Positions 1 to 24,560 of a stretch of 32,052 nucleotides of DNA are shown one piece after another. The DNA is from Bacteroidota bacterium. GTDB taxonomy: Bacteria > Bacteroidota > Bacteroidia > J057 > JADKCL01. The notes beneath the pieces are model-generated. The model worked only from the letters and a program-made list of their open reading frames with translations, searched no databases and had not been told where the DNA came from. Where the stretch lies: contig JBCCQH010000095.1 in NCBI GenBank assembly GCA_039024435.1, positions 1-32,052 of the forward strand, in the 5' to 3' direction. A program made the translations under genes and the position numbers. Within the stretch, counting starts at the first letter, position 1. Each line of letters opens with the position of its first letter.

Positions 1-3000
1 CCGTGGATCGTATGCGCAAAGTCCAGGCCCTGCACCTTCTCCTCCCCAATCTCCTGCCGCGCCCGCGAACCGTGCAAATAATAAAACGCCTTCTCGTCCC
101 GGTCCCAATTGACCGCATTGGTCGACGTTTGCACCAGCGCCAGCCGGTTCGCCGCATCGTAGAAATACCGGTGCAGCCATTGGTCCGCCTCTCCCTCCTG
201 GAAAGCGAAATAGTTTATATTTCCCGAAATCAAATCGTATTCGTAGCGCAGCCGCTTGTAGCCCTGCCCGTAAGCCTGCAACTCATGGAACGCGTGTACC
301 AACTCCGAAACATTGCCGTGCTCGTCGTAGGAATAATGACAGAGGTAATCGTACGGACCACTGCCTGAGTTGCGCCGCGCCGTCGCCGAAACCCGATTGC
401 GCAGATTGTCCGGCGCAAAAGCCGGGACCGCAAACGGACTCGCGTCGTACCAGGTATAGGTAATGTCCCGCGTGGCCGTTGCCGCGCCCAAGATCGTGTT
501 CCGATCCGCCGCATCCAGGATAAAACTGTGGCTGAACAAAGCGTTGCCCGAAGCAATCGCATTGTCCATCTCCCCCACTTCCGTGGGGCGGCTCAAGAAA
601 TCGTACTGGGTGTAGGTGTACTTTTGCTGCGCATCGTTCTGGCGGGCATCCTGGGCAAAAATCGCCCGGCCCAAGTGGTCGTACCACACCTGACTGCGCC
701 CCTTGTCCGGGGTCACACTCTCCCGTACCCCCAGCAGCGAATTGTACCGGTAGCGCGTGCGCAACCCGTGTCCCGGATCGACCGGCGTGCTCGGCTTCGC
801 CGAGCCACTCACGAAGTGCGCCGCGTAAGCCGTCCGGTAGGCGTCCGCCCCCGCGAGGGTCGACGGATCGCGGATCACTTCCGTTCCCTCCGGCGGAATC
901 GTCGCCTGCAAAGCCCCCGAATTGTCCCGGTAGTACAGCGTGTACTGGTATTCCGCCTCGTCGTGGATGCGTTCAAAACGCTCTCCCGGCGCTTCCAGGC
1001 ACCTCGCCACGTAGCGCTCCCGGAAATTGCGCCGCACCGAGTCCCGGTAAGCCTCGTACCGCACCTCCGCCCGGAAAACCGCCAGGTCCATTTGCTCCTG
1101 CGCACACGGATCCGGACCCGCAGGCTGCGGAATCCCGTTGCACAACCGGAGCTCCGCCGCATCTGCCGCAATCGGGCCCGCATCGACGATTTGCTGCAAG
1201 CGCACCGCCCAGGGCAAGGCAACCGTGTCGCCCACCGCAACCACAAACGTATCCACTTCCGGGGAAGCATCCTGATAGGTCCGGTACGTACCCGGCAATA
1301 CCGCCACCCGATTGGCATTGCCGGCCGAACAAGTCGCCTGAAAATCCGCGTACTGAACCGCGGTCAAACTGAAATTTTGTACCTCATTCGCGTAGGTCGC
1401 AAACAGATCCCAGAAATTGCCCGTCGCCGCCAGGGTATAAGGCGTCGCCGCCTCAAAATCGGTGACCAGGCCCGCCATCTGCGCACAATCGATGCAGCAA
1501 TCCTCACTCACCTCCCGGATCATGATCTGATCCAGCCCAAAATCATTGCCCGTTTCGCTGAGCATGTAGTTGCGGATGGTCAACTTGATCGCCCAAGGAT
1601 CCGCCGGATTGGCGCCCGGATCGGGATTGTTCGGAGCCGTCCAGAAGTACTCCACGTATTTCCAGCGGCCCGGATCTTTCGGGACAATCGCCGGCGCAAA
1701 AGCGTTCTGGTAATCGGGGGTCCCCCCCGTGGCCGTAAACGATTCCAGCAACACGTCGAGGGAAGGATCGTACTTGTTGCGGTGCTTGATCAGGTCCTTG
1801 CCTGCCACGTCCCACAGATTGATCACCCGGTAACTGATCTGATAGGTTTTGCCCGGGATTACCCCGCCCGGCACCACCGGACTGCCAAAGGAATACACGT
1901 CATAGGTAGCCCCCGAAGGCGGCGGCGTCTGCCCGTAAGTCGTGTAGCCCCCCGTGAGACCGTACTCGCCCCGCATGAGCAGGAAATGTCCATTGACGTC
2001 CGGGAACAACGCCGAACCCGTCACCGGAAACGCACTCGGATCCGCCATGCAGTCCGCCCCGTTGCCGATGCCCCACAGGCCATTGTCCTGGATATTCGGA
2101 GCCACGCAGGCAAAGTTGTAGGGGCAATTCGCCGTGCCGCAACTTCCATTGCAGAAATTGGGCGCAGCTTGCGCCACCTGATTCGTGCAACTACCGGGCA
2201 GATAAGCTTCCGTGGTTGCATTGAAAGCCCCACCAAAGTGCCGGTATTCACCCACCGCCCCCTGCGGCTCAAAATCGTCCCAATAAAGGGTGTCGCTCAC
2301 CCCGCCACAGCCCGCATCGGTAAAGGGAACCGGATCGTCAAACTGCATGGGCATCCCGAGCAGAAGGTGCGAGCACAAACCATTGGCCGTCACCACCGAG
2401 CCATAATAATGCGTGATGACGTCCGCGAAACTGAAGAAAGTTACCCCCTGGCTGGGGCTCAAATAGCCCGGTCCGGAGGGCGTATTGGCGGCGCCGAGTG
2501 GATTGTTGACGTCACAGCCGGCGGCGCAAACGCCCTGCAGATCGTCCAGGACATCTTGCTGGTTCACTCCGCTGGACAAAGCATCACAGTCCGCCAACTG
2601 GATCGCCCAGTAGTCGCGGTAAGCCGCACATTGCGTGCTGCAATTCTGCGTGAGCGCCCCATTTGCGAGGTTGCTGATGTCCTGGGCCAGGGTGCCCGAA
2701 TTGACATCGATTCCATTGACATTGCTGAAATCCGGGTGGAGCCGGTCTTTGGTGTCCCAATTCGTCGATCCGCAGATGATATTGCTGCCCGGCTTGCGCA
2801 CCTGGTTCACGCAGGGATGGTAGGCGTGGAAATAATAATCCAGCATCCGCTGGCGGAAGGAGAAAAACAGGCGCTTGTAATTGTCCCATTCCGCATCCTG
2901 GGTGGCCGGATTGCTCCCCAGCACCAAAGAAGGACAGCCCGCCGGATTCCCCGGACAGTTCGTCGCGATCACCGCCACCTGGGGCAAGTTGTAGGTCGTC

Positions 3001-5918
3001 CCCTGAATCGTGGCAAAATTCGTCCAGGCATTGTCCCAATAGGTCCGCTGGGGCGTGCCCGGGGCAAAGATGCCCCCCGTTTGCGACAGGGGATCGCTTG
3101 CCGCGGGATTGGTGTAGTCGAGCGGTACCGTTCCGCCCCCGTAAGTGTCAATGGCCAGCAGATTCTCCCCGTAACTGTGCTCGGCATCCAAACCGCTGCA
3201 CCATTGCCAGTAGCAATATTCCGGATGGTAGGGCACCAGCGCCTGGGCCCAGCTTGCCTCCCAGTTCTGAATGAAGTCCTCCAGCGACAGCAAAGCCGGC
3301 GATACACCGTTGACCTGGGCCGGATTCCCCAGGGCATCCACGTAGCCTCCAACCGGGGACTTGAAAGGGAAACTGAGCGTCGTGATGTTCCCGGTTGCCG
3401 GATTGACCTGCCCCAAACAAAGGTCTCCGGCAAACACATTGATTCCGTCGGTCGCCAAATAGTTGCCGCCCGCGATCTGCCAACCCGCGTACTGCCCGCC
3501 GGGCGAAACATCGTTCAGCATAGCATTGTACAACGCCTCGCACCAATCGGCCGCGCAATCGGCACGGCACAGCTCCTCCAAGTCAGGATCGGTGTACTGG
3601 GCCGGCGGCGGCGAAGGACAATCGGCACACCCCAAGTTGCAACCAGCCGTGTCCACATTTTCCATCTCCTCCAACAGGAAATCAGCAAGGCCTTTAAGAC
3701 AGATGTTGTTCGCCAAAAAATGCTCGGTGTACGCCGCGATGGCCGCTTCATTGACCTTGAGGCGCTTGATCGCAGTGTACTTGCCCACGGTCAGATCCCC
3801 AAAAAATTCGTCGTAGGTCGTATTGGGCAGCAGCAGGTCACCGTCGGGCGTACACTGCCCGTCCAGCTCCGGTCCACTGATCGTGATCGAAACCGGACCG
3901 TCCTTGAGCACATCGTTGCCGCAGTCGTCGAGGACCGTGATTTCCAAATCGTAGATGCAATCGTAGCAGCCCCCCGGCACACAGAGATCAAATAGCTGGT
4001 GGTCGTCCACCTGGTACTCAAAATTGTGGCGCCCCGCACTGGTCACCAGGAATTCAGTCACGCTGAGCAGCGTGCCTTCTTCCAGGTTTTTCTCATTGCG
4101 GCGCAGCAAGTCCTTGCGCAGAGCCGTCCGCACAATATTGCTGTCCAGCGCGATCAAGCTGGCCGGAGAAACACCGGCCAGTGCGGTCGCGATCACCTCC
4201 CCCGAGCCATCCAGGTAACTCACGCTCACCTGCCCGTTTGCGTCGACCACCAGGTTTTTGCGGTAATGCGCCGCAAATCCGACCTCCGAACCAAACAACT
4301 TGTCCAGGTCTTCCTGCTCGGCCGAACCGTAAAAATACCGGGTTTCGTGGCCGCTGCCCAGGTGGTGGTCCGGACCGACCGTGCTTTGGCTGGCGATCCG
4401 TCCGGTGGCGTCCGGGGTGAAAGTCGTCTGCACGAAGGGATAGCCTCCGGCGTCCGGCAGGTGCGCCTGGGCCGCCCAGTGCTGGTGCGTCGCGTCCACC
4501 GTGTAGTTCCCCCCACCAAAGTAACCGCTGTAAGAAGCAGAGCTGTAGTAATATCCTGCGCCCCGGGAACTGCCGAAAGCCTCGCTTTGGGTTGCGCACA
4601 CCCCGGGATTGTCCCGGTCAAAATCGTTGCGGTCGTACCGCCCCCCACCGGTATCCTCGTTGAAGAAGTCAAAGTAGCGCAGCTTGGGCGCGTGCAACAA
4701 TGCCGGCGCCGGCAATGCCTGCACCGCCGGCCGCCCCTGGTGATCGTAGTAAGATTCGCCCACCACCGCCGTGCTGTCCGCATTGTTTTTGCTGACCTGC
4801 TGGCGCTGGCGCAAAGTCCCGTCCAGGAACGCTACCGATCCCATGCGCACCCCGTCCTCCACGTAGGTCGCGCTGAACTGCCAGTTCAAGTCCCGTTCCT
4901 CCCCAAAAATCCGTTCCGCGTGCTCCCCGATTAAATTGCTGTCGTCGATAAAGCCGATGATGTCCGCAATGGTCCCCCGGCCGTCGCCGTCGGTATCGTA
5001 TTGGTCGCTGGTCCAGCGGGTGGGCACCCGGTGCAAGGTCAGCCCATCCCAGACGTGGCGGATCGCCCGGATGCGGTAGATGATGTAGCCCGCCTCGTAC
5101 ATCAGCGGGATCCGGTAAAAGTTAAACGGGGTCGCTACCCGCGTCGCATTGTTCCGGAAATCGTACGCCAAGGCTGTGCTGTAATTGAACAGCGGATCGT
5201 CCACCGCATTCACAAAAGTCCACTCCAACTCGTATTCTTCCGCCCCTTCCACAAATTCCCAGCGCACCTCCATTTCCCCGATGTCATTCATCCGCTTGTG
5301 CTCCAAATCGAGGTTTTCCGCCACTCCGCTCACCGGACTGAACATCCCATCGTCCTGGCGCTGCCGATCCACCACGATGCGGCTTTCCAGGTAGACGTGC
5401 TGCGGCGTGACCCCCACCGGAACATTCCCGGAAATGGTCACCTGCTGGATCTCCACGATGGCATAGTGTACGCCATCCCGAACCCGGAGGTCGCGGATCC
5501 GCTCGTTGCTGCTGCCGCCCGCCGGATCGTAATTGACCACCAGGGTTTCGGTCCCGGTGCTCTGGTTGAAAAACCGGTCAAATGCGGTGTAGCGGACCAC
5601 CACCGTGGCCGTAAAATCGCCTTCCACCACCAGGCTGCTCCGGTCGATCCCCAGTTCGAGTTCTCCCTGGCTTTGGCGGACCGCGTAGCCGTCCAGCCAG
5701 TTGGGATTGTTCAGGCCCGTAGGGAAGAGATCGTCCTGGGTGTAGACGAATGCATTGGGAGCAATCTGGCTGCCGGCCAGGCGGCTGTTGAACTCAATCC
5801 GGCCGGCCTGCAGGGAAAGTGCCAGCCCACAGAGCGCGAGCACAAACGCGGTTCCCCAGCGCAGCAAAGCGGAAAAATTGCGCGGAATATTCATGGTAAT
5901 CGGTGAATGCTTGGTCAT
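1..5918 (-). CDS. Giant RHS/YD-repeat protein with N-terminal signal peptide and Cys-rich region. The 5' start (ATG) is in the window, the 3' end runs beyond the left edge, and at least 1970 aa are encoded here. It is missing from the ORF track because there is no in-window stop.
   Basis: The minus frame with codon phase 3..5918 is open throughout, and every reported minus-strand ORF in 1..5900 lies in one of the other two frames. My own translation begins MTKHSPITMNIPRNFSALLRWGTAFVLALCGLALSLQA (signal-like) and contains Cys-rich stretches such as CNLGCADCPSPP...CRADCAADWCEALY. The C-terminal part is dense with YD repeats, which I spot-checked at 440-480 (TATRDITYTWYDA): VWYDHLGRAIFAQDARQ, CHYSYDEHGNVSEL, RYEYDLISGNINYFAFQEG, QYTLYYRDNSGALQATIPPEG. 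The ATG lies 10 bp downstream of the stop of the TcB-like gene. Confidence 0.8.
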   Translation of the reverse strand, partial: MTKHSPITMNIPRNFSALLRWGTAFVLALCGLALSLQAGRIEFNSRLAGSQIAPNAFVYTQDDLFPTGLNNPNWLDGYAVRQSQGELELGIDRSSLVVEGDFTATVVVRYTAFDRFFNQSTGTETLVVNYDPAGGSSNERIRDLRVRDGVHYAIVEIQQVTISGNVPVGVTPQHVYLESRIVVDRQRQDDGMFSPVSGVAENLDLEHKRMNDIGEMEVRWEFVEGAEEYELEWTFVNAVDDPLFNYSTALAYDFRNNATRVATPFNFYRIPLMYEAGYIIYRIRAIRHVWDGLTLHRVPTRWTSDQYDTDGDGRGTIADIIGFIDDSNLIGEHAERIFGEERDLNWQFSATYVEDGVRMGSVAFLDGTLRQRQQVSKNNADSTAVVGESYYDHQGRPAVQALPAPALLHAPKLRYFDFFNEDTGGGRYDRNDFDRDNPGVCATQSEAFGSSRGAGYYYSSASYSGYFGGGNYTVDATHQHWAAQAHLPDAGGYPFVQTTFTPDATGRIASQSTVGPDHHLGSGHETRYFYGSAEQEDLDKLFGSEVGFAAHYRKNLVVDANGQVSVSYLDGSGEVIATALAGVSPASLIALDSNIVRTALRKDLLRRNEKNLEEGTLLSVTEFLVTSAGRHNFEYQVDDHQLFDLCVPGGCYDCIYDLEITVLDDCGNDVLKDGPVSITISGPELDGQCTPDGDLLLPNTTYDEFFGDLTVGKYTAIKRLKVNEAAIAAYTEHFLANNICLKGLADFLLEEMENVDTAGCNLGCADCPSPPPAQYTDPDLEELCRADCAADWCEALYNAMLNDVSPGGQYAGWQIAGGNYLATDGINVFAGDLCLGQVNPATGNITTLSFPFKSPVGGYVDALGNPAQVNGVSPALLSLEDFIQNWEASWAQALVPYHPEYCYWQWCSGLDAEHSYGENLLAIDTYGGGTVPLDYTNPAASDPLSQTGGIFAPGTPQRTYWDNAWTNFATIQGTTYNLPQVAVIATNCPGNPAGCPSLVLGSNPATQDAEWDNYKRLFFSFRQRMLDYYFHAYHPCVNQVRKPGSNIICGSTNWDTKDRLHPDFSNVNGIDVNSGTLAQDISNLANGALTQNCSTQCAAYRDYWAIQLADCDALSSGVNQQDVLDDLQGVCAAGCDVNNPLGAANTPSGPGYLSPSQGVTFFSFADVITHYYGSVVTANGLCSHLLLGMPMQFDDPVPFTDAGCGGVSDTLYWDDFEPQGAVGEYRHFGGAFNATTEAYLPGSCTNQVAQAAPNFCNGSCGTANCPYNFACVAPNIQDNGLWGIGNGADCMADPSAFPVTGSALFPDVNGHFLLMRGEYGLTGGYTTYGQTPPPSGATYDVYSFGSPVVPGGVIPGKTYQISYRVINLWDVAGKDLIKHRNKYDPSLDVLLESFTATGGTPDYQNAFAPAIVPKDPGRWKYVEYFWTAPNNPDPGANPADPWAIKLTIRNYMLSETGNDFGLDQIMIREVSEDCCIDCAQMAGLVTDFEAATPYTLAATGNFWDLFATYANEVQNFSLTAVQYADFQATCSAGNANRVAVLPGTYRTYQDASPEVDTFVVAVGDTVALPWAVRLQQIVDAGPIAADAAELRLCNGIPQPAGPDPCAQEQMDLAVFRAEVRYEAYRDSVRRNFRERYVARCLEAPGERFERIHDEAEYQYTLYYRDNSGALQATIPPEGTEVIRDPSTLAGADAYRTAYAAHFVSGSAKPSTPVDPGHGLRTRYRYNSLLGVRESVTPDKGRSQVWYDHLGRAIFAQDARQNDAQQKYTYTQYDFLSRPTEVGEMDNAIASGNALFSHSFILDAADRNTILGAATATRDITYTWYDASPFAVPAFAPDNLRNRVSATARRNSGSGPYDYLCHYSYDEHGNVSELVHAFHELQAYGQGYKRLRYEYDLISGNINYFAFQEGEADQWLHRYFYDAANRLALVQTSTNAVNWDRDEKAFYYLHGSRARQEIGEEKVQGLDFAHTIH

Positions 5919-5928
5919 GGCCGTAAAA

Positions 5929-8900
5929 TCAATTGAAGCTTACTTTTCTCAGGCTGGTGCGGGATTCCTGTACCGTGTGGATCCCGCGCTCGGTTTCTTT
6001 CTTTACCCGGATCAACGCGCCATCCTCGTCGTACTCGTAGAAGGTGGCGTAGTGATTGGCGTCCAGTTCGGCCATCAGCCGACGGTTGTAGGGATGGTAC
6101 ACGTAGCTCTTCACGATGGCATCTTTCGGGGAAATGCGCACATCGTCGAAATAGACCGGGCCTTGCGCCGGACCGGTATTCGCAAAGCGCACGAATACAT
6201 TCAGGGGACCATTGGCCCCGAGCGGCAGATCCGGCACGGCAAATTCATGCTCTATGCGCTGCCAGCCGTCGATCATGGTGCCCTTGCTGCCGATGGTTTC
6301 CGTGGCTCCGACGGCGTTGCCGTCTCCATCGGTGAAGTAGAGCAGCATGCGGCTGCGGTCGGCCCGCAACGGAGGAATGTCGCTTCCGGTGTCCTCCTGC
6401 CGGGTCCAGGCCAGCAAGACGTAATCGCCCGCCGTCGGCTCAAATAGATCCAACCGATCATCCCAGCCGGTGACGTACTCCTGGTTGCCATTCAGGCCGC
6501 CCCCGCTGCTTTGCGCGAAAACCTCGCTGCGTACCGTCGGGAAGTTCCCCTCCACTTTCAGGCTGCGGAATCCAGAATGGGCGGCGTCGGTGGACATTTG
6601 CCCGGAATACTGAACGAAGTCCCAATGGAACAATTCACACTGATTCGCGGTGGCGTCCCGCAGTACGTAATCCTCAAACCCATCAAACGCCAGTTGCCGG
6701 TACTCCGCATTTTGGCCCATGGCTGCCACCAGGCTTTGGTCGTAGCCCAAGATGGCACCGGCGTAGGTCACGATGGGATCGCTGCTCTCCACTTCGAGGC
6801 CGCGGGGGTGGAATTCTTCCGCTTGCTGGGTGTATTGCCAGCGTGCATTGGGGGTTCCGGCAAATGGATTCCCCGCATCTTTATCGCCGTACCAGCGCTG
6901 GACCCCACTGCTGTACCGCCAAAACGGCACGAAATCCGCCAGGACGCCGTCCTCCCGCAGCCGCGGCCGATTCGCGTCCACGTAAGCGCGGTCCTCCAGG
7001 AAGGCGTGGGTGCGCAAGGCCCGCCAGTGGCCCCGCAACCCCTGTACCCAGGGATTGACCACATCGCCCACGCTATCACAAGCGGTTGTATTCGGAAAGC
7101 GGGTATTGCCGCTGGAACACAGGGCCGGATTGGGCCAGGAGATCGGCCCGTAAACCACCGGCGTGGGCATCGCCGGACAATTCAATTCGAAGCTCACCAA
7201 CGAACGGTTCGGATCGTTCGGATCCGGCACCACCGCCAGATTGCTCAGAAAAAGATTGCCATTCGGACAGGGCACGGTGAGGTTCAGCGGGATCGTCTGA
7301 TTGAAAAATAGGTTTCCGTCGCAGTCATAAAACTCCAGGATCAGCGCCGCACTCGCCGGTGGCGTAACCACCCCTTCGTAATTGTACCCGCAGCCCACGC
7401 CCACCGGATAGCCAAAGGTATTCGCGGAATTGGCCAGCGGACCCAACAGATCCAACCAACTGCACCCCGCCACGCCGGGATAATCCGGATTCAGGAGCAT
7501 CTTCCAATCATCGCTGAATTCCGCCGCCGCGCTGGACAGCACCCAATCTTTTTGCGCATTTACGTCTAGAACATTGTTGACCAGGGGCGAATTTTCCAGG
7601 AATTGCACCGAGCCGGCCGCGGTTCCCGCCAGATTGCGCTGGATCGAGCGGATGATCTTGAGGTCAAACTGGGCGCCAGTGGAATTTCCGCTGTTGACCT
7701 GATTGCCCGCGCGGTCCACCAGGTAGAGGTTATTGCCCGCAATATGGCTCACCCAGTACGGTCCCAGGTACAGCCCGATTCCGTTGCGCTTCAGCAGCAC
7801 CTCGTCCCCCACCGCGAAATGAACCGCATCGCTGCCCGCGTTGATCGCCGCACCATTTCCCGGATCAAACTCCAAGCCCGTTTTCTGGTATTCCAGCCGG
7901 GGATACGCCAGTCCCATCCCACCATAGATCCAGTGGGCGGGATAGATCAGGTCGTAAATCGGCTGTTTGTATTCGTTCCAGGTCCGGGAAAGCAGGACCT
8001 GTCCAGTTTCCGAATCGTAGGCCAAGTGCTCGGTCGGAATCTGGGCCTGGCGGTCGTACTGCACGATTTTTTCCAGGATGGCGGAGCGGTCGATGACTTT
8101 GGTGGCCACCGCCGAGCGGAAACGGGTCCGCTCCAAGGTCAGGCCCGGAATGCTCGACACGATGGGTGCCGGAGCATTGGGCTGAAAGTCGATCTGGGCC
8201 CGCAAGTCCACCGCCACCGAGGCGGTTTTGTATTCACGCATGTCGGTCACCATGTCCAGGGTCAGGCCCATCTCCGCTTCAGCCACGGTCCCATCCGGCC
8301 GGATCACCAGCACACGGTTGTCGAGGGTGTCCCGCAGCTCACCGCGGGTCCGGTAGAAGTAGCGGGTTCCGCTGATCTCCCGCGCCACCAGCTTGTGGGG
8401 CGGAGCATTCGGATCGGGTTCTGGATAGGCAAATATCGCCTTGGGCTTGCCGTGCATATCGTTGCGCTCCACCACAAAACCTTCGGCGGCGGTCATGAAG
8501 TCGGTCATGCCGGCTTTGAAGAAAGCGGGGATGAAGCGACTGGTCGAGCGCCGTTTGCGGGGTCCGGTATCGCGGACCCGAGTGGGAAAATCTTTGGCGG
8601 TATAGAACTCGTGGACCGCGTATCCGGTGGCATTTTTGCGCACGTTGGCGTGGGGGAGATTGCGCACAGTGATCTGGCGGTAACCCACGGTGGGGGCAGG
8701 AAACATGGATTCCCCCAACGGTTCTTCCTGCAGAAAACGCTCGTCGGCGGCCAGGAAATTGCTTTGCTCGTAGCGCACCGGCTGGCGGAAGGGATTTTCA
8801 TCGCCGCCAATGATGGGCTCGTAGGCCGCCACCCCGGAACTGATCCGGCGGGTCATATCTGCATCGGGTTGGTTCAGATCCGGAATCGCCTCGGCAACCG

Positions 8901-11900
8901 TGTACTCGTAGATCTTCCCGTAACGGAAATCGGTCCCGGTTGTCCCGGTCATTTCGTCCCAATTGTCGTACATCAGGATCCGCTTCACCCGGTGGCCTCC
9001 GCCGTACTTGACCCGATTGGGATCGGGTAGGCGAATGAAACTCTGCGTCTTGTCGATGTTCTGCCCGTATTTCTGCTGGTTGTACATCCAGCGGTTGCGG
9101 GAAGAAAAGACCAGAAAAATATCCCGGAAAAAGCCCAACATGCCCCGCATTGCGCCTTCAAAACCGGCTTGGGCTGGATCGTAGGCCGTGCTCCCCCGGT
9201 AGACCAGGTGATTTTGTTGCAGCACCATCTGGTCCCAGGTCGCCTTGGCGATGGGGTGGACCTGCAGGCCGCTGCCTTGGTCCTGGTCCTGCACCGATTC
9301 CAGGCGGACCTTGATCCAACCGCGGGTGTAGGCTCCGTTGCCATTCACCGAAGCATTGTCCAGACCAGCGACGATGCGGCCATCCGCCCGTTCCAGCTCG
9401 GCGTAACCCCGCACAAATTCCTCGTGCTCCCCGGGACGCGGGGCCCAGGCCAGGGCATTCCATTCTACCAGACAGCGGAAGTAGAGGTATTGGCCCAGAT
9501 CGTGGATGTAATCCTGGTAGAAGCGCTCATCGTCCCGGTCATCCCCCGTCCGCTGGGGGATCGGTTCCTCCAGGTCAAAGTACAAATAGGAATACTGCGC
9601 GTTGCTGGCCGGATCGTAGAGGATACTGCGTGCGCTGGCGGTGGCATCGTCAGGGAGATTGCTCAGTCCAGTGATGGTCATCATCCGCATGGCGCGCCGG
9701 TTCTGCACGTGGGCGTAGTCGTCGGCCTCGTATTCCACTTCCATGCGCCCTCCGCTGGGGAGGTCCACCGCAGTCAGGCACCAAGCCGAGGCATAGCTGT
9801 CCACCAATGCCTTGTCCTGAACCACGTAGGGATAGTCGACGTTTTTGAGTTCGTCCTGGTTGTTGCTCAGCGAAGGCGTGTACATTCCCCAGCGGTCATT
9901 TTCCTGGGGATTGTAGGCCGGATTCAACCCTCCGTAGTGGAAGACGTAGTTGTTCATCTTGCCCTTGGTGGAGTTGTAATGGGTAAAATAGATTCGCTTC
10001 AGCGTCAGTTTGCCGCCTTGATTTGCCAGTTCATTTTCCTGGGCACTGGCCGGGCTGTTGTCGTTGTTCGGGACACTCGGACACAGCGAGTAGTCGTACT
10101 CAAAATGGACCGACTGGATCGGGACCGGGGCCTGCCCGGTGGGCGGATTCAGGTATTCCCGCCGGGCAAACAGGTCGATGCGATTCAACTTGCGCAAGTT
10201 CATATTGGGATCGATTCCGCCGTGCTCCCCCATCACGCCGTGGCCATCCTTCCGATCCGAAAGCACAAAGAAGGCCACGTAATCGCGGGATTCAATCGAG
10301 TGCAGGTACCAAATTTCCTTTTCGCCGTAGCTGTAGCTGGCTTGGTCGTCGGTGGGATCGCCCCGCAGGCCGGGATTGTGCTTCGCCCGCCATTGCTCGT
10401 AAGGCGCCCGCCAGCGGTAGCTCGCCTGATCCCGGCTATAATTGAACTTGACGTAGCTGCCGATGTCATCTCCGCTGGGACCATCGCCGGTGCGGTCTTC
10501 GTAATCCGACGAAAGGTAGGCGGTGAGCAAATAGCTGTGGGCATACGGATCGACTTCAGTTTCATCGATAAAGCCGTCCTGCCCGGCGGGCTCAATCGCC
10601 TGCGCCGTAGCATTGTAATAGCTTACGTAATCGATCTCGCCCCCATTGTAGGGCAGGGCGGTGGCATTCAGGGCGGATTTTCCCACACTGAAGCTCACAT
10701 CCTTTTGCACCCGGTTGTAGGCAGGGATGCCGTAGACGTAGCGGTTGCCGCCCTCCCCGAGCACGGTAAATTCCGAGGGATGGTGGTCTTTGCGGCCCGC
10801 CGCCGCATCGGCACGATTCAAGGTTGTCGCACTGGCGAGATTGCCGTTCACCGCGTAGGATTGGAGGGTTTTTTCCAAACCGCCGACCGCCGCTTCCCGG
10901 GCGGCCAGGACCGAAATTGCCGCATTGCCGGGCCGGCGCTGGTCGCGCAGTACGGGCGCATTCACCGGAACTGCATCCGCCGCCGCGTCCGAGAGGCCGG
11001 TGGTCCAGGCCGCTTGGGCGCTCACCCCGAGGGCCCCGCTCAAGCGCGGGCGCACCGGATCCAGTCCCCCTCGCTCGGCGAAGAAATCCGAATCCATTTG
11101 CACCTGCTCCCCCAGCATACGGAAAGTCGCCGGCTGATAGAGCGCCGATGCGGGATTGGCCTCGACGTAGTTCACCTTAGGCAGGAGTTCGTTCTGGTCG
11201 ATCCACTTGCCATTGCCGCCCGACATGAGGGCGGGCATCCAGTCCAGTCCCACGACATTGTTGCTGCCGACATTGGTCTGCAGGCCCGCATTCAGTACAC
11301 CATTGCTGCTGATGGTATTCGCCCGATCAAAAACCGCTCCCACGTCGCCCCGGTAGGCCCGAAATGCCCCCGCGACGCCTTGCCCACTCACCGCGTAGGT
11401 ATCGTAGGTCAGATTGGTGAGCGGCAGATGCGGCGTTTCCTTGCGCAGTCCGCCGTCATTTTCCCGAACAAAATCGAGGGAAGCCTCCCGGTCATCCTTC
11501 CCCTTGTGGAGGTTCAAATAACCGTAGGCAGACGAGGTGATGTTGTTTTTTTGGAATTCTTGCTGGGAATAGAATCCCGTGATCACCAAATCATTGTTCG
11601 AGATCCATCCCGGCAAGCCTTTGAAACCCTGGACCCGAAAGCTGGTAGAAATCGTGCGCATCGGGAAGTCGGTGCCCGGTGTGTAGGTCGGATGGGCCAA
11701 CTGCACCCCCTGCGACCAGGAAGGCAAATTCAGGCGGCGGTCGCCGCTCTTAAAGGCTTGGTTTTTCGCGGCGGTGAGGTTCAGTTGCCGCAGGCCGCTG
11801 CGCGAGTTGATTGCGGTCGTCAGGCTTAAATTTTGTCCCAAAGCCAGCTTTTTGCGCTTTTCTCCCAGGCCGCTGAATCCGAATTGCGGACGCACCGCCG

Positions 11901-12543
11901 TCCCCTGGCGGGCGGAGACGTTGATTCCCAGACTGGCATTCCATTTCGTTTTGGCCAGGTCGGTGGACCCAATCGCGGGGTTCAGGCTCAAGCCCATGTC
12001 AAAACCGGTGTAGTTGTTGTGTTGCAACAGCATCGAAAAGCCTCCGTTCAAATACTGGTTGAATTCCGCCGCTTGGTTGGATCCGGCGGGCGGTTTGGTA
12101 TAGTTCAGGCCCGCAATCTCAAAATTGCGGCTCAGACTGACGCCCCAGGTGCGGTTGGGACGCATGTCCCGGTGGCGCTTGACCTGGTCCGTCCCGTTAA
12201 ATTCATCGGGCAATCCCCGCAAATTGCGCAGGATTGCCCCCACGTTGAGGTTCCAGCCCAGTCCCACCCAAGAAGCTTCCTGGTCCATCTGGATGCCCGC
12301 GTTGTAACTCAAGCTGACCGGATAACCCCCGACTTCCATCAGGGGCAAGTTGTACTTGAAATCTCCGGTGAAAAGGTCCACCATCTCACTGGTGGAGGCC
12401 GGACTGAAAGACTGGACTTCGGGCTGCGAAGGTCCGCTGGTGAGCGCGTAGGCGGTCAGCGGAAACAGAATTTGATTGAGGAGTGCGATCAGCAGCGTGA
12501 CCGCAAACAGTTTGAGAAATTGCGCTTTGGTGGTCATGTTCAT
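5929..12543 (-). CDS. TcB/TcaC-like toxin-complex component: signal peptide, SpvB-type N-terminal domain, a long middle region and a C-terminus ending in YD repeats (2204 aa).
   Basis: A 2204-aa ORF. The N-terminus MNMTTKAQFLKLFAVTLLIALLNQILFPLTAYA is signal-like. The motif PVSLSYNAGIQMDQEASWVGLGWNLNVGAILRNLRGLPDEFNGTD matches the SpvB/TcdB N-terminal signature (...SLTLNYNSGAGNSPFGLGWDCGV...GVPNYDETD). The C-terminus reads YATFYEYDEDGALIRVKKETERG (a YD repeat). The gene sits 6 bp after the upstream gene and 10 bp before the RHS gene. Confidence 0.8.
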   Translation of the reverse strand: MNMTTKAQFLKLFAVTLLIALLNQILFPLTAYALTSGPSQPEVQSFSPASTSEMVDLFTGDFKYNLPLMEVGGYPVSLSYNAGIQMDQEASWVGLGWNLNVGAILRNLRGLPDEFNGTDQVKRHRDMRPNRTWGVSLSRNFEIAGLNYTKPPAGSNQAAEFNQYLNGGFSMLLQHNNYTGFDMGLSLNPAIGSTDLAKTKWNASLGINVSARQGTAVRPQFGFSGLGEKRKKLALGQNLSLTTAINSRSGLRQLNLTAAKNQAFKSGDRRLNLPSWSQGVQLAHPTYTPGTDFPMRTISTSFRVQGFKGLPGWISNNDLVITGFYSQQEFQKNNITSSAYGYLNLHKGKDDREASLDFVRENDGGLRKETPHLPLTNLTYDTYAVSGQGVAGAFRAYRGDVGAVFDRANTISSNGVLNAGLQTNVGSNNVVGLDWMPALMSGGNGKWIDQNELLPKVNYVEANPASALYQPATFRMLGEQVQMDSDFFAERGGLDPVRPRLSGALGVSAQAAWTTGLSDAAADAVPVNAPVLRDQRRPGNAAISVLAAREAAVGGLEKTLQSYAVNGNLASATTLNRADAAAGRKDHHPSEFTVLGEGGNRYVYGIPAYNRVQKDVSFSVGKSALNATALPYNGGEIDYVSYYNATAQAIEPAGQDGFIDETEVDPYAHSYLLTAYLSSDYEDRTGDGPSGDDIGSYVKFNYSRDQASYRWRAPYEQWRAKHNPGLRGDPTDDQASYSYGEKEIWYLHSIESRDYVAFFVLSDRKDGHGVMGEHGGIDPNMNLRKLNRIDLFARREYLNPPTGQAPVPIQSVHFEYDYSLCPSVPNNDNSPASAQENELANQGGKLTLKRIYFTHYNSTKGKMNNYVFHYGGLNPAYNPQENDRWGMYTPSLSNNQDELKNVDYPYVVQDKALVDSYASAWCLTAVDLPSGGRMEVEYEADDYAHVQNRRAMRMMTITGLSNLPDDATASARSILYDPASNAQYSYLYFDLEEPIPQRTGDDRDDERFYQDYIHDLGQYLYFRCLVEWNALAWAPRPGEHEEFVRGYAELERADGRIVAGLDNASVNGNGAYTRGWIKVRLESVQDQDQGSGLQVHPIAKATWDQMVLQQNHLVYRGSTAYDPAQAGFEGAMRGMLGFFRDIFLVFSSRNRWMYNQQKYGQNIDKTQSFIRLPDPNRVKYGGGHRVKRILMYDNWDEMTGTTGTDFRYGKIYEYTVAEAIPDLNQPDADMTRRISSGVAAYEPIIGGDENPFRQPVRYEQSNFLAADERFLQEEPLGESMFPAPTVGYRQITVRNLPHANVRKNATGYAVHEFYTAKDFPTRVRDTGPRKRRSTSRFIPAFFKAGMTDFMTAAEGFVVERNDMHGKPKAIFAYPEPDPNAPPHKLVAREISGTRYFYRTRGELRDTLDNRVLVIRPDGTVAEAEMGLTLDMVTDMREYKTASVAVDLRAQIDFQPNAPAPIVSSIPGLTLERTRFRSAVATKVIDRSAILEKIVQYDRQAQIPTEHLAYDSETGQVLLSRTWNEYKQPIYDLIYPAHWIYGGMGLAYPRLEYQKTGLEFDPGNGAAINAGSDAVHFAVGDEVLLKRNGIGLYLGPYWVSHIAGNNLYLVDRAGNQVNSGNSTGAQFDLKIIRSIQRNLAGTAAGSVQFLENSPLVNNVLDVNAQKDWVLSSAAAEFSDDWKMLLNPDYPGVAGCSWLDLLGPLANSANTFGYPVGVGCGYNYEGVVTPPASAALILEFYDCDGNLFFNQTIPLNLTVPCPNGNLFLSNLAVVPDPNDPNRSLVSFELNCPAMPTPVVYGPISWPNPALCSSGNTRFPNTTACDSVGDVVNPWVQGLRGHWRALRTHAFLEDRAYVDANRPRLREDGVLADFVPFWRYSSGVQRWYGDKDAGNPFAGTPNARWQYTQQAEEFHPRGLEVESSDPIVTYAGAILGYDQSLVAAMGQNAEYRQLAFDGFEDYVLRDATANQCELFHWDFVQYSGQMSTDAAHSGFRSLKVEGNFPTVRSEVFAQSSGGGLNGNQEYVTGWDDRLDLFEPTAGDYVLLAWTRQEDTGSDIPPLRADRSRMLLYFTDGDGNAVGATETIGSKGTMIDGWQRIEHEFAVPDLPLGANGPLNVFVRFANTGPAQGPVYFDDVRISPKDAIVKSYVYHPYNRRLMAELDANHYATFYEYDEDGALIRVKKETERGIHTVQESRTSLRKVSFN
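12153..12415 (-). other. SpvB-like N-terminal domain region within the TcB-like protein (about residues 45-130).
   Basis: Motif match recalled from Photorhabdus TcdB/TcaC N-termini. No HMM was run. Confidence 0.55.
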
Positions 12544-12549
12544 CGGTAG

Positions 12550-14130
12550 TTAATTCTTCTCAAATCGGATGTAAAACGTCTCGTTCTTCTCATTGGTCAG
12601 TTCCAGGGTGTAGTGTCCGACCGCCAGGGAGCTGGTATTCACAGAAAACCGGTTCTCCCCGTAAGACTTTTGCAGGTTCAAAGCCGCCGCCGATTGCACG
12701 ATGTTTCGCCGCCAGTCCATGATTTGGACCTGCAACTGACCGGGATCGTATTCCCCTTCGTAGCGAAAGTGCAAGAAGCCATCCTGAATCTGGTACCAGG
12801 CCCCCGACGGTTTTCTATCCGGCACCGCGTAGACCTTCTCATACTTCGTTTTGGGACCGTCCGGGACATTGAAAATGACCAGAGCGGCCTGTCTCAACCA
12901 GGCATTTTCCGGCGGAAACTGGGCAAATGTCCCACTCGTCTGGTCCCCCACGTGATCTTTCCACTCCAGACGGGTCGCGAGTCCCCCCCGGAGATTGTCC
13001 AGGCGCAGGCGCCACTCCACGGCCACCTCCAACTCCCCCACCCGATTCCCTCGCAGCAAAAATTCTCCGGGAAGCAACTGGAACTCCGACGAATCCCCAT
13101 TCGGAATCGCCCCGTTTTCCCCCGCCAAGGTATCCAGCCTGCATTCGTACTCGCTCAACTGACTCAGGTCAAACCGCACGGCCATCCCCCGCAAGTTCAA
13201 GCTGTCCGTCCGCCGCGTGTAAAAGCGCCCGTGCAACTCACTTCCCACTTTCGCGGCGGTGCCCTCCGGCAAATGGTAGGTCCGCGCACTCCACCTTCCG
13301 CTCGCGTCGATCTGGGTGCGCAGCTCCGCCGACTGTCCGGCGATCCCAATGCGGTAGTCCCCGGGCAAAAGCGCCGCCGAAGCCCAACCGCTCCCCCCAA
13401 ATCCGTCCGGCCCATTCAACCAGTTCAACGCTTGATCGGTTTCCATCAGATTAAGGTATACGGTCCGGCCCGCGAGGTAGAGGGTGTCACTCCCGGAATA
13501 GATCAGGCCCGGCCCCAAAAGCATTTCCCCACGGCTCAAAGTCGAATCGCCGTCGGCAAAATAGACCGAATCGGACAGGCTGCCCGTGGCCGCCGGAAGT
13601 TGCAGGATAAAGTCGGCGGAGCGGTCCTTGCCGGTGCCGCTGGTCAGCCGGTAGGTTCCCGGAAACAGCGCCACGCTGCCGCCATTGGTCAGCGTGCGGT
13701 CCAGTTGGGGCAGGCGCAGGCTGTCATTGGCGACCGCGATCTCGGTATAAAAAGAGAGCGGCAACAACCGCAGGCGGCTTCCCTTGTTTTCCAATGCGTA
13801 GTAGGACGCGGGCAGGATCGAAGTGCTGGTGTCCGCGGGCAAGCGCCAGACCAGGTTGGAGATCGCCCCCTTGCTGCCGACGGCGAAGCGGATCACAGCA
13901 CTGATTTCCGTACTCACGTCCAGTTCCAAGGTGTAATCGCCCGCACTGATCCCGGTAAAGCCTTTCAAAGCGGGAATGACAAATACCGCGTCGGTTCCCG
14001 GCCCCACCAAACGGGCCGAAGTACTTTGCAGTAGCCTCAAATCCAGCTCAATATCGGCCGCTGGGAGCCAACTCCCCAAAAGCAGCAGCAATCCGATCCA
14101 GCCAATTCTCAATTTATAATTTGCGTTCAT
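12550..14130 (-). CDS. Secreted hypothetical protein, first gene of the Tc-like operon, with a possible T9SS C-terminal domain (527 aa from the preferred start; the ORF track extends to 14172).
   Basis: The ORF is 12550..14172. Internal Met15 begins MNANYKLRIGWIGLLLLLGSWLPAAD, a typical signal peptide. The C-terminus VGHYTLELTNEKNETFYIRFEKN resembles a T9SS sorting tail (weak). Its stop lies 6 bp upstream of the TcB-like start. Confidence 0.7.
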   Translation of the reverse strand: MNANYKLRIGWIGLLLLLGSWLPAADIELDLRLLQSTSARLVGPGTDAVFVIPALKGFTGISAGDYTLELDVSTEISAVIRFAVGSKGAISNLVWRLPADTSTSILPASYYALENKGSRLRLLPLSFYTEIAVANDSLRLPQLDRTLTNGGSVALFPGTYRLTSGTGKDRSADFILQLPAATGSLSDSVYFADGDSTLSRGEMLLGPGLIYSGSDTLYLAGRTVYLNLMETDQALNWLNGPDGFGGSGWASAALLPGDYRIGIAGQSAELRTQIDASGRWSARTYHLPEGTAAKVGSELHGRFYTRRTDSLNLRGMAVRFDLSQLSEYECRLDTLAGENGAIPNGDSSEFQLLPGEFLLRGNRVGELEVAVEWRLRLDNLRGGLATRLEWKDHVGDQTSGTFAQFPPENAWLRQAALVIFNVPDGPKTKYEKVYAVPDRKPSGAWYQIQDGFLHFRYEGEYDPGQLQVQIMDWRRNIVQSAAALNLQKSYGENRFSVNTSSLAVGHYTLELTNEKNETFYIRFEKN

Positions 14131-14817
14131 GGTCAACTCTTTGTAGTCAATAATTTTCCCTTCCGAAATCACACTTCTGTGACTTTCGGCGCATATCTCT
14201 CCCTCCCGATGCGGTCTACCGGTTGGAATGGGCGACGGCTCCGCCGATTTTCCCGGAATATCAACCAGGAAAGCCGCGCGGCCAAGCCGGCCTTAAATCA
14301 GCCTCGTCCGCGATTGGGGAGGCATTTTTTCAATGGAATGGTACTACTTAGATTTTTTCATAGGTTAATTTATGCTGTGGTCATTGGTCAGTATTCTCTC
14401 CGTGGGCGAAGCAATCACTTGTCCAACAAGGGCGTTGCGTGCTCCAACTGCACGGTTGCACACTTTGGGTAATTATTTGCTGACTTGTATTGTTTGTCGA
14501 GTATCTCTTTTGGCTCTCTATGACGATTATAAATATGCACAATTCACGGTAGATTGCAAAGCAATTTTTGACTTTCATCCCTAAATTTTACCGAATGGGG
14601 CGTTTGGGCGGATGTAACGGCCATTTTAGGGAACAATCCGCCGCACCTGCAAGGAAATTTGGATTGGGAATCATCGTTTTTCTGGATTGCTGATCGGGCG
14701 ATCAAACCGCGCCCATCGGAAACCGGTAATTGACCTCCACCGCGCGGTGTTCAAATTGATAAATTTGAATGCGGCTGCGGGAAGAACCTTGTTTTGGGTT
14801 GCTTGTAATTGAAGGGT

Positions 14818-14856
14818 GTGCGTCCAGGACGCGCGCATTGGAAATCGGAAATCAAG
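14818..14856 (-). repeat. Copy A (reverse orientation) of the dispersed intergenic element: ATTTCC(G/A)AT direct repeats plus a GC hairpin.
   Basis: gtgcgtccaggacgcgcgcattggaaatcggaaatc. Its reverse complement, GATTTCCGATTTCCAATGCGCGCGTCCTGGACGC, aligns to copies B and C. It lies about 40 bp upstream of the DUF4440 start, in the divergent region shared with the Tc-like operon. Confidence 0.6.
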
Positions 14857-14891
14857 CAACCAGAAATCACGCACAATGGCTATCTTTCCGC

Positions 14892-15347
14892 ATGCGTCGA
14901 TCCATTGTTTCTACCGTTTTGGGCGCCTGCGCCCTGTTCTTGTGGTTTTCCGGGGCGGCTTGGGCCCAACAAGCCCCCAAAGCCAAGGACCGCACCGCCG
15001 TCCTTGCCATCATGGACCAGCAGGAAAATGCCTGGAATTCCGGCGATCTAGTCGCTTTCATGAACGGATACTGGCGCAATGATTCGCTCAAATTTATCGG
15101 GAAAAGCGGCGTCACCTACGGCTGGGACGCGACGCTGGCCCGCTACCAAAAAGGCTATCCGGATCAGGCCGCCATGGGAAAGCTCACCTTTACCATTTTT
15201 CACGTGGAGGCCATCGGCAAAAAAGCGATGTTGGTGGTGGGCAAATGGTTCCTCCAGCGCGCCGAGGACACGCCCAACGGACATTTTTCCCTGCTCTGGA
15301 AAAAAATCAAAGGCGAATGGGTGATCGTCGCCGACCATTCAAGCTGA
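14892..15347 (+). CDS. DUF4440/SnoaL-like (NTF2-fold) protein with signal peptide.
   Basis: Within ORF 14769..15347, the internal in-frame Met (MRRSIVSTVLGACALFLWFSGAAWAQQ) gives a signal peptide. The body YWRNDSLKFIGKSGVTYGWDATLARYQKGYPD...GHFSLLWKKIKGEWVIVADHSS is typical of the DUF4440/SnoaL-like family. Confidence 0.7.
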   Translation: MRRSIVSTVLGACALFLWFSGAAWAQQAPKAKDRTAVLAIMDQQENAWNSGDLVAFMNGYWRNDSLKFIGKSGVTYGWDATLARYQKGYPDQAAMGKLTFTIFHVEAIGKKAMLVVGKWFLQRAEDTPNGHFSLLWKKIKGEWVIVADHSS

Positions 15348-21310: not shown

Positions 21311-21326
21311 TGAAGTAATTTGGTGA

Positions 21327-21341
21327 TGATCGGATCATCTT
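21327..21341. promoter_or_regulatory. Small inverted repeat GATGATC-CG-GATCATC about 20 bp upstream of the giant ATPase start codon.
   Basis: gatgatccgatcatc is a perfect 7-bp inverted repeat in the 161-bp gap between the flotillin and ATPase genes. Confidence 0.3.
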
Positions 21342-21380
21342 AAAATGGTGACCGGAGTCCGGTCTTGTTTCGGGGATGGA

Positions 21381-21434
21381 GGGTGCCCCGGGCACCCGGA
21401 GCGCATCCGCACGCCTTTCGGGGTGCGGATGCGC
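21381..21434 (-). promoter_or_regulatory. Two adjacent GC-rich stem-loops in the flotillin-to-ATPase intergenic gap: a 7-bp stem GGGTGCC/GGCACCC and a perfect 12-bp stem GCGCATCCGCAC/GTGCGGATGCGC with a 10-nt loop.
   Basis: gggtgccccgggcaccc followed by gcgcatccgcacgcctttcggggtgcggatgcgc. No U-tract follows on the transcribed strand, so this is not a canonical intrinsic terminator. A role as a partial attenuator, processing site or stability element is possible. Confidence 0.5.
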
Positions 21435-21471
21435 GGGGGAAGTACCCCGGTCGCGGGTTCAACCGGGCCGA

Positions 21472-23727: not shown

Positions 23728-23816
23728 TTTAGTTCAATAAGTATTAGAAGATGTTGAAATGGTTTTCCGATATGCGGTTGCTATGCTTGTTTTCGGCCAT
23801 AAATAACGAGGGGCAG

Positions 23817-24560
23817 TCAGGCCGATGCGGGCGATTCCAGCGCGATTTCTTCCGCGAATTCCTGCACGGAGAACACGCTGTTGCCTTCCCGGACTTCTCT
23901 TTCCAGAATGAGGCAGCGGGTGCCCGAGGTGATCTTTTCTCCATCAAATGAGCGCACGGTGATCCGCAGGTGCTTGTCCCGCACCACGACATCCGCTTGC
24001 CCCAAGCGCACCCCTTCTACCCCCAGTTCCAGCGTACACAGCTTTCCGATCAGGTTCACCGGGGCATCGCCTTTGCTCATTTCGCGGAACATCTTGCGCA
24101 GCGGCTGGGTAAACAGCTTGGCCACCAGCAGTCCAAACACGAAACCGCCCCCGAGAATTCCCGCGGTCAACCCAGGCTGACCGGCGGCAAAATAGTGGTT
24201 CCCGATGATGGAAGCTGCCCAGTAAAACAGCGCAAAAAAGCTGAAAAAGATCATAAAAGGCACGTCTCCCAGGTTCAAAAAGTAGAGTATCCGTGCGCCG
24301 AGTCCGGGCGATTTGCCCGCCAGGGCTTTCCCCATGTCCTTGCCGCCTTTGCTGCCCACCTCGGAATCCGCATCGACGTCGACATCCACGTCCACGTCGA
24401 CATCCACGTCCACGTCCAAATCGACATCTACGTAGAAGTCCATGAAACTCAGGTCGAGCATGCCAAATAGAAAGACCAGCCAATACAGCACCACAAAAAG
24501 GAGCAGTATAGTCGGAAATACATTGGCAGGGGAAAATGATAAGTCGAAGATTTCTTTCAT
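23817..24560 (-). CDS. NfeD-like (YqiJ-type) membrane protein with a C-terminal OB-fold, the canonical partner of SPFH proteins. It carries an internal (Asp-Val)n repeat (247 aa).
   Basis: N-terminal TM helices, then YVDVDLDVDVDVDVDVDVDVDVDADSE, further TM segments (FMIFFSFFALFYWAASIIG, GILGGGFVFGLLVAKLF), and a C-terminal beta-rich domain (LGQADVVVRDKHLRITVRSFDGEKITS). It lies 89 bp upstream of the flotillin gene, matching the yqiJ-yqiK / nfeD-floT arrangement. Confidence 0.8.
   Translation of the reverse strand: MKEIFDLSFSPANVFPTILLLFVVLYWLVFLFGMLDLSFMDFYVDVDLDVDVDVDVDVDVDVDADSEVGSKGGKDMGKALAGKSPGLGARILYFLNLGDVPFMIFFSFFALFYWAASIIGNHYFAAGQPGLTAGILGGGFVFGLLVAKLFTQPLRKMFREMSKGDAPVNLIGKLCTLELGVEGVRLGQADVVVRDKHLRITVRSFDGEKITSGTRCLILEREVREGNSVFSVQEFAEEIALESPASA
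24366..24435 (-). repeat. Imperfect tandem hexamer (GACGTS)n inside the NfeD-like gene, encoding alternating Asp-Val.
   Basis: catcgacgtcgacatccacgtccacgtcgacatccacgtccacgtccaaatcgacatctacgtag. Confidence 0.7.

Follow-up and report, generated by a model that had tools for sequence, protein, structure and literature searches.

The window analysed here is a 32,052-nt contig (JBCCQH010000095.1) from a metagenome-assembled genome (MAG) listed at NCBI as 'Bacteroidota bacterium', with about 60% G+C. Towards its left end it carries three minus-strand genes, which we call p0, P1 and P2. They quite probably form a Bacteroidota-specific RHS polymorphic-toxin cassette that resembles the BC subcomplex of Tc toxins but would depend on Sec and dispense with TcA, with the giant TcB-like protein P1 as the partner of the RHS toxin P2.

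P1 (5929..12543) encodes 2204 aa from its ATG and is deposited at NCBI as hypothetical protein AAF998_22670 with 2202 aa. Upstream of it lies p0, the first gene of the operon (12550..14130; 526 aa from an ATG, or 540 aa from a GTG at 14172), and downstream the 5′ portion of the DUF6443-RHS toxin gene P2 (3..5918), whose 1972 codons stay open to the left edge (frame 1..5918). The three genes run head to tail, with 6 nt between the p0 stop and the P1 ATG and 10 nt between the P1 stop and the P2 ATG, and we read them as one operon. No terminator-like site falls in either gap, site counts being at chance level, and scans for tandem repeats, promoters and terminators gave nothing exceeding chance. 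On inspection, the N-terminus of each of the three proteins has the layout of a signal peptide: the n-region is charged, and a hydrophobic stretch leads to an AxA-like site. The original prediction, made from the DNA alone, had described these open reading frames (ORFs), their sizes, the 10-nt spacing, the signal-like N-termini and the Cys-rich region of the second protein, and all of this holds with small corrections. The upstream protein, put at 527 aa and thought to be secreted, keeps its signal-like N-terminus and measures 526 aa from the ATG. P2, described as missing from the ORF track, is absent from that list because the ORF lister omits ORFs running off an end; NCBI already annotates it as 'hypothetical protein AAF998_22665, partial'.

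Gene order argues that P1 and P2 belong together. Among 80 fetched genome loci with a P1 homolog, 64 extend at least 3 kb downstream of it, and every one of these 64 has a DUF6443-RHS gene downstream on the same strand. The same order occurs on metagenome contigs, and the pairing is also found when starting from the RHS genes of the isolates Mucilaginibacter mallensis and Chitinophaga sp. S165. It is this invariable same-strand adjacency, together with the 6- and 10-nt gaps in the window, that leads us to regard P1 as the putative partner of P2.

The P1 family is large. More than 3959 relatives remain after clustering at 90%, all of them 1800-2600 aa long, labelled 'hypothetical' and without a Pfam domain. 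A scan of 1.84 billion representatives returned 6026, 4050 and 3036 clusters at 50% identity for E<=1e-3, 1e-10 and 1e-30, respectively, and P1 relatives turn up in no fewer than 582 GTDB species genomes. Nearly all listed records are labelled Bacteroidota; three MAG titles are named otherwise (loci L015, L033 and L082). Isolates that carry a relative include Terrimonas ferruginea DSM 30193, Agriterribacter humi, Longitalea luteola and Mucilaginibacter phenanthrenivorans. A full-text literature search found no published account of the P1 family or its RHS cassette: 'DUF6443' returned 0 papers, and searches on Rhs, Bacteroidota and T9SS and on Tc toxins in Bacteroidetes turned up nothing on the family.

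P2 is, on the evidence of its motifs and of its relatives' domains, an RHS polymorphic toxin that the edge of the window truncates. Its signal-like N-terminus (aa 1-38; 5805..5918, on the minus strand like every feature of the three genes), identified by inspection, ends in FVLALCGLALSLQA ahead of GRIEF. A match to DUF6443 (Pfam PF20041) follows at aa 359-406 (4701..4844), with E 1.2e-5 and 26.0 bits against a cut-off of 27.8, hence below the gathering score; PF20041 is precomputed for P2 and most of its relatives. The Cys-rich region, delimited at aa 646-1640 (999..3983) by Cys count and family conservation, contains 38 of the 42 Cys in P2, many of them invariant in the family. YD-type repeats begin only at about aa 1657 and mark the start of the RHS/YD-repeat shell (aa 1656-1972; 3..953), with YxYD/G columns that are conserved in the family. 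The portion of P2 inside the window has no Pfam RHS match, but its three closest full-length relatives (P0123-P0125; 37-42% identity) have RHS_repeat matches in the corresponding region. The YD motifs and the relatives' domains agree with the earlier description of P2 as a giant RHS/YD protein running off the window.

The relatives of P2 show what the truncated part is likely to hold. They are proteins of 2300-3400 aa, named RHS or YD, with PF20041, PF05593 and variable C-terminal toxin domains, their C-terminal ends being AHH, WHH, HNH, PT-HINT, GH108, lysozyme and others. In P0123-P0125 (2830-2932 aa), the Rhs-associated core TIGR03696 lies at about aa 2514-2664 (E 2e-4 to 5e-14), so that some 850-960 aa of P2 are expected beyond the left edge; by analogy, the missing part should comprise the rest of the shell, the Rhs core and the toxin. 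Other relatives show YDPRLGRF…DPSGL or DLDGLE, and small ORFs lie downstream of the RHS gene. The Rhs core, DPxGL-type motif, variable toxin end and small downstream ORF that had been proposed as checks are all present in these relatives. Searched against the PDB, the P2 family profile matches YenC2 (E 1.2e-9), RHS2 (7.5e-8), RhsA and Tse5, and P0125 matches the Rhs core of SGS1 (E 3.6e-7). A simple hydrophobic-run test finds a signal-like segment in 91 of 118 relatives.

Ahead of DUF6443, a conserved 'GAEEYDLEWTF … FRNNATRVT … YRVRA' block occupies P2 aa ~205-300 (~5020-5300, minus strand). It looks FN3-like by eye, with no profile match, and might correspond to the FN-plug by which teneurin-type shells are closed.

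P1 is, at the level of a short motif and of its predicted fold, a highly diverged relative of TcB. The SpvB profile PF03534 does not match it at E<=10 and matches only one of 22 relatives (E 0.048); all SepB relatives carry this domain. The N-terminus being unseen by Pfam and NCBIfam, remote-homology and fold evidence were needed. We took SepB and SepC from plasmid pADAP and built a 25-sequence TcB profile for hhalign. Comparison of the N-termini aligned P1 aa 58-126 (12166..12372; FxYNLPL...GGYPxxLSY...GLGWNLNxGAIxRxxRGLPDxF) with TcB aa 33-109 (prob 80.8%, P=1.3e-5, 31% identity), against P 0.35-0.43 for reversed-profile controls. With sliding 250-aa windows of P1 the signal is confined to the first window; past the motif no sequence similarity to TcB is detectable, and windows compared with the propeller region of TcB (aa 350-700) are not significant. 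P1 aa 57-112 also aligns, in the same register, with a bona fide SpvB-domain protein from locus L070 (38% identity, E 0.0065). P1 shows both an N-terminal SpvB motif and an SpvB N-domain fold in its models. What had been called a diagnostic SpvB N-terminus survives as a remote 65-residue motif, and not as a domain that any profile library recognises.

The opposite end of P1 resembles TcC. Its conserved YD-type hairpin tail (aa 2145-2204; 5932..6111; SYVYxPxxxRLxAELDxNNYATFYEYDEEGxLxRVKKETERG) aligns with the RHS repeats of SepC (TcC; E 0.035) and contains the one canonical YxYDxxG of the protein, at aa 2169. RHS_repeat matches appear in 3 of 22 relatives, all at E>=0.036. The claim that P1 ends in YD repeats is correct for the last ~60 aa with their single canonical motif; the rest of the protein is not YD-repeat by sequence. 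A phmmer search of P1 against PDB sequences found no match, and the sole PDB match of the 55-sequence family profile is the CBM4 carbohydrate-binding module (CBM) of laminarinase 16A (E 0.01).

AlphaFold models were computed from the 55-sequence alignment for aa 1-1200 (predicted local distance difference test, pLDDT, 74.8; predicted template modelling score, pTM, 0.72) and aa 1005-2204 (pLDDT 77.5, pTM 0.65). For the second model Foldseek returns RHS-type shells, with SGS1 (E 7e-11) and TcdB2-TccC3 (2e-7) followed by Rhs proteins from type VI secretion systems (T6SS), a bacterial teneurin-like protein, teneurins and YenBC. The highest pLDDT is found in a conserved beta-rich core with long beta hairpins (aa 588-1680; 7504..10782), delimited by conservation and the models. 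A variable segment with 7 Cys and low pLDDT follows (aa 1690-1830; 7054..7476), and it is here that relatives matching only ~76% of P1 cease to align. Next comes a CBM-like beta sandwich (aa ~1975-2140; 6124..6621), indicated by the family profile and by Foldseek, which returns clean CBM22, CBM27 and CBM4 matches over ~170 residues (prob 1.0, TMt 0.4-0.5). The C-terminal module of CBM and YD tail is a separate gene in loci L004 and L088, so the end of P1 is modular.

At the other extreme of the protein, the hydrophobic signal-like N-terminus (aa 1-33; 12445..12543), recognised by inspection, ends AYA ahead of LTSGPSQPE. It is kept as NQILFPLTAxALTGGPSQPE in a family that is only 35% identical overall, with little or no variation at P28, A33, L34, T35, G37 and P38. 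A signal peptide that is simply cleaved off would not usually be so conserved, and the segment may act as an anchor or sorting motif.

Several family members depart from the common layout. Chitinophaga sp. S165 (QGTG01000001.1; L088, L089) has several cassettes, two of them in tandem. The P1 homolog of L088 is divided between two proteins, one of 1854 aa with a PA14 insertion and one of 1164 aa with the CBM and YD tail. The SpvB-domain protein used in the comparison above is encoded at L070:8190-9206 (plus strand) in the Saprospiraceae MAG contig CAYTZS010000142.1. It is a stand-alone Pfam SpvB protein of 338 aa (E 8.6e-39) without a signal peptide. Its gene precedes the P1 homolog by two genes, where p0-like proteins are usually encoded; it looks internally shortened and may be a remnant. 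Clusters resembling a type II secretion system (T2SS) or type IV pilus, comprising a secretin, T2SSE, T2SSF, a prepilin peptidase and an N-methyl pilin, are found no more than 10 kb from P1 homologs at L001:1-6928 and L004:1-5444 and in L012, L026, L035, L045, L051 and L081. Since only ~6 of 80 loci are involved, this link is probably coincidental, although such clusters could conceivably provide an export route.

A number of results weigh against the proposed cassette. P1 has no Pfam or NCBIfam match, even at E<=10. The TcdB mid-N and mid-C profiles of the propeller (PF12256/PF12255), which the original prediction had asked to be searched, match neither P1 nor any of 22 relatives. Full-length hhalign of the P1 profile with SepB, SepC and the TcB profile is not significant, and a by-eye correspondence of P1 aa 585-900 with TcB aa 115-400 was rejected (hhalign P=0.89). 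With these two comparisons failing, homology to TcB rests on the 65-residue motif and the predicted-structure comparisons. The models themselves are of moderate confidence (pLDDT 75-78), with values of only 45-75 at aa 130-330. The matches of aa 1005-2204 to RHS shells have E-values of 7e-11 to 1e-5, yet TM scores of only 0.06-0.13, and therefore express a repeat-level likeness that does not demonstrate a closed cocoon. The comparison with the TcB-TcC cocoon and teneurin shells proposed at the outset thus yielded Foldseek matches and no superposable cocoon. The toxin and immunity gene of P2 fall outside the window, P2 being cut by its edge. Finally, in 54 of 63 relatives a gene for a secreted protein of ~230-280 aa stands between the P1 and RHS genes, including the closest relative, L090 (63-67% identity; intervening gene at 14339-15091). 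The window is among the few loci that lack this gene, only the 10-nt gap at 5919-5928 separating P1 from P2, and the module may therefore be incomplete here. Three of the intervening proteins (from L001, L003 and L004) have no Pfam domain.

The alternative that survives best, though we hold it doubtful, takes P1 to be mainly an outer-membrane (OM) translocator or anchor. A barrel at aa ~130-450 would be inserted by the beta-barrel assembly machinery with the help of Skp/OmpH, the SpvB-like features would be secondary, and P1 would export or tether the RHS toxin in the manner of TpsB, inverse autotransporters or PorV, an idea that overlaps with the model we favour and would supply the export step it lacks. 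It concerns the region of ~10 long amphipathic beta strands at aa 130-340 (11524..12156), which may form either an SpvB-like curved sheet or a barrel like those of outer-membrane proteins (OMPs). Foldseek ranks OMP barrels first for the aa 1-1200 model, with OmpG (prob 0.98), FadL and porins; these are weak matches at E>=3e-3, and nothing in the PDB reaches E<=0.001. About 8 consecutive strands at aa 161-306 are strongly amphipathic, and beta-amphipathicity in the family profile is higher there than in the rest of P1 or in TcB 110-350. In a control, however, this metric barely separated a real usher barrel from its flanks, for which reason we do not claim a beta barrel in P1, the support for one being weak. 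The region also has the lowest model confidence, and no OMP family profile matches it. More in line with translocation are two genes kept upstream in many of the 80 loci, one small and lipoprotein-like (~36/80) and one OmpH/Skp-like (29/80).

A wider proposal, which we likewise regard as tentative, would make the P1 family the core of a Bacteroidota export route for RHS proteins, derived from TcB and equipped with an OM beta barrel and a variable receptor-binding end, and aided by a Skp-like chaperone and small lipoproteins. If this were true, the P1 route would move a Sec-exported DUF6443-RHS cocoon over the OM to target cells and would count as a previously unrecognised secretion pathway, replacing TcA, the T6SS and the type IX secretion system (T9SS).

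It is improbable that P1, P2 or both leave the cell through the T9SS by means of a sorting signal that profiles miss, which would make the operon a T9SS-dependent surface toxin and p0 an accessory protein secreted alongside. The lineage does have T9SS cargo, as the original prediction had assumed: a 362-aa protein at 26031-27119 (minus strand) ends in an unambiguous sorting domain of the T9SS C-terminal type (Por_Secre_tail, E 2.8e-12). The conserved C-terminal ~100 aa of p0 bear a weak resemblance to this domain, with a sub-threshold Por_Secre_tail match (E=0.0025; 18.5 bits against a cut-off of 27), and its counterparts have a similarly weak end (E 0.036). The conserved ~60-aa tail of P1, moreover, also closes the separate L004 protein. 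Yet no profile of a T9SS C-terminal domain (CTD), whether type A (PF18962/TIGR04183) or type B (TIGR04131), matches P1 or P2; the tail of P1 resembles YD repeats and not an Ig-like CTD, and in relatives of P2 the C-terminus is occupied by the variable toxin.

As for p0 itself, its C-terminal ~100 aa are shared by the upstream proteins of L001, L002 and L003, and a protein ending in this domain lies upstream in 19 of the 80 genome loci. The N-terminal 420 aa found no tblastn match in those loci and matched only the upstream proteins of L001 and L090, the ortholog in L090 being 40% identical. A 'LxPGxYxL' motif recurs every ~90-110 aa along p0 (12550-14130, minus strand), which suggests tandem beta-sandwich domains.

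Still less credible is that P1 is an unrelated giant surface protein or adhesin that happens to stand beside RHS genes and owes its likeness to TcB to generic beta-sheet structure. The lack of significant full-length similarity to TcB and the low TM scores would fit, but the same-strand adjacency in all 64 loci spans Bacteroidota orders with tiny intergenic gaps, and the motif match has the position and register expected of TcB, its controls being clean.

A tblastn search with SepA gave 0 matches in the window and in 84 related loci with 10-kb flanks, whole genomes not being searched, and no TcA-type Pfam domain occurs among the neighbourhood genes listed, the other ORFs of the window carrying unrelated Pfam domains. 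The statement that the window lacks TcA is thereby confirmed, and the possibility raised with it, that a TcA gene just beyond the edge would reveal an ordinary Tc locus, found no counterpart in the related loci. That these genes encode an ordinary ABC toxin assembled in the cytoplasm, with P1 as TcB, P2 as TcC and TcA elsewhere, is next to incredible in spite of the TcB-like fold of P1 and the TcC-like Rhs core of the P2 family, given the absence of SepA matches even though several of the related loci sit on Mb-scale contigs, the signal-like N-termini of both proteins, the conserved Cys-rich region of P2, the undetected TcB propeller that docks TcA, and sizes of 2204 and ~2900 aa that far exceed the ~1430 and ~970 aa of TcB and TcC.

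In function and ancestry, the closest known system is nevertheless the Tc BC subcomplex, as in TcdB2-TccC3 of Photorhabdus, YenB-YenC2 and SepB-SepC. There too, two adjacent genes encode a first protein with an SpvB-type N-terminal motif and fold, joined in P1 by putative RHS-like sheets, and a second with an RHS shell, to which the relatives of P2 add the Rhs core, cleavage motif and variable toxin. P1 also ends in YD hairpins, as expected if two shells join. In contrast to the BC subcomplex, no TcA is found nearby. Tc B and C components lack signal peptides, whereas both proteins here start signal-like by inspection, and cysteines are conserved. The TcB propeller and the Pfam SpvB, midN and midC domains are undetected in P1, which instead adds the amphipathic beta region and the CBM-like domain; P2 adds DUF6443 and a Cys-rich region of ~1000 aa. 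Most relatives also have OmpH-like, small lipoprotein-like and ~240-aa accessory genes.

In concept, the closest parallel comes from Zhang et al. 2012 (PMC3482391), who predicted in silico a 'TcdB/TcaC export pathway' class, reported also from Bacteroidetes, in which a signal peptide, an SpvB domain and a propeller are combined with RHS repeats and polymorphic C-terminal toxins. The class shares with our cassette an SpvB-type module combined with RHS, a Sec signal and the absence of TcA. It differs in that the SpvB-like module here is a separate protein of 2200 aa unseen by profiles, no propeller is found, the N-terminal half of the toxin consists of DUF6443 and the Cys-rich region, and accessory genes are conserved. 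RHS effectors of the T6SS (RhsA, Tse5, RhsP, Tre23-Rhs) likewise enclose a C-terminal toxin in an RHS cocoon that has an Rhs core, and they are among the structural matches of both P1 models and the profile matches of the P2 family; unlike in those systems, no PAAR, VgrG or T6SS genes accompany the window or the related loci, and signal-like N-termini take their place.

The bacterial teneurin-like proteins (TLPs) described in PMC13018210 are Sec-targeted and probably surface-exposed YD shells that enclose a polymorphic toxin and come with immunity genes. They are single polypeptides with an FN-plug, NHL and YD-shell, known from six phyla that do not include Bacteroidota. TLPs and teneurins give weak structural matches to the P1 models, but no NHL or FN profile match was found here, and two chains are involved. 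The description of the locus as teneurin-like fails by this definition and by the taxonomic range of the published TLPs. Mosquito SGS1 (PDB 8FJP), the best Foldseek match of P1 aa 1005-2204, is an RHS/YD shell into which CBM and lectin domains are inserted. It is, however, a single eukaryotic chain that contains two propellers and encloses a helical cargo, and the likeness is at repeat level only.

Returning to the BC-like cassette, we envisage the following mechanism, in which Sec export, the interaction of P1 with P2, their envelope location and delivery into the target cell are inferred only. P1 and P2 would both be exported by Sec. An extracytoplasmic location is argued for by the signal-like N-termini, the conserved cysteines of P2 and the OmpH/Skp-like gene in 29 of the 80 loci; surface display and Sec export are plausible. 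After its signal peptide, P2 would consist of the DUF6443 region, a disulfide-rich region and the RHS shell and, by analogy with its relatives, would end in a self-cleaving Rhs core and a variable toxin held inside the shell, with an immunity gene downstream. P1, made up of the SpvB-like N-terminal domain, RHS-like beta sheets, the variable Cys segment, the CBM-like domain and the YD hairpin, would be an obligate partner that docks onto the RHS shell of P2 or completes it. The contact would probably run via the YD tail, which would prolong the beta sheet of P2 in the way that TcB and TcC join. P1 may stabilise or close the shell and anchor or present the toxin at the envelope or surface, while its variable Cys-containing and CBM-like end may bind target cells. 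P1 would in this way stand in for TcA in interbacterial antagonism. The Rhs core protease would free the C-terminal toxin, which would then enter a competitor, with the immunity gene protecting kin.

RHS toxins are major weapons between bacteria, and we know of no described exit route for the DUF6443-RHS proteins that are very common in environmental Bacteroidota (Chitinophagaceae, Sphingobacteriales, Flavobacteriales, Saprospiraceae and Cytophagales). Our data place one giant unannotated family directly before or close to these genes on their upstream side; it comprises ~3000 clusters at 50% identity, and no fewer than 582 species carry it. P1 is a candidate for the factor that exports or delivers these toxins, and one that is present in culturable strains such as Terrimonas ferruginea DSM 30193, Mucilaginibacter mallensis and Chitinophaga sp. 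S165. If the proposed cassette is correct, it would represent a fourth mode of RHS deployment, TcA-independent and apparently Sec-dependent, beside Tc toxins, T6SS Rhs effectors and teneurin-type shells.

The remainder of the window holds further genes. Three of them form a minus-strand operon at 16400-24560. One product (1636 aa) combines DUF3686 with an AAA ATPase, and another (751 aa) is flotillin/SPFH-like and has a long coiled coil rich in E, K and A, to which the AT skew of -0.52 at 22-23 kb is probably due. The third (247 aa) is a membrane protein resembling YqiJ_N/NfeD. PADLOC found no match in the operon, and its results for neighbouring genes have no bearing on the toxin cassette. 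One of these results concerns a 385-aa HATPase_c_3 protein at 30641-31798 (plus strand), whose N-terminus matches PADLOC models named 'REase_II' (E 8.8e-18) and which is possibly part of a restriction or defence gene.

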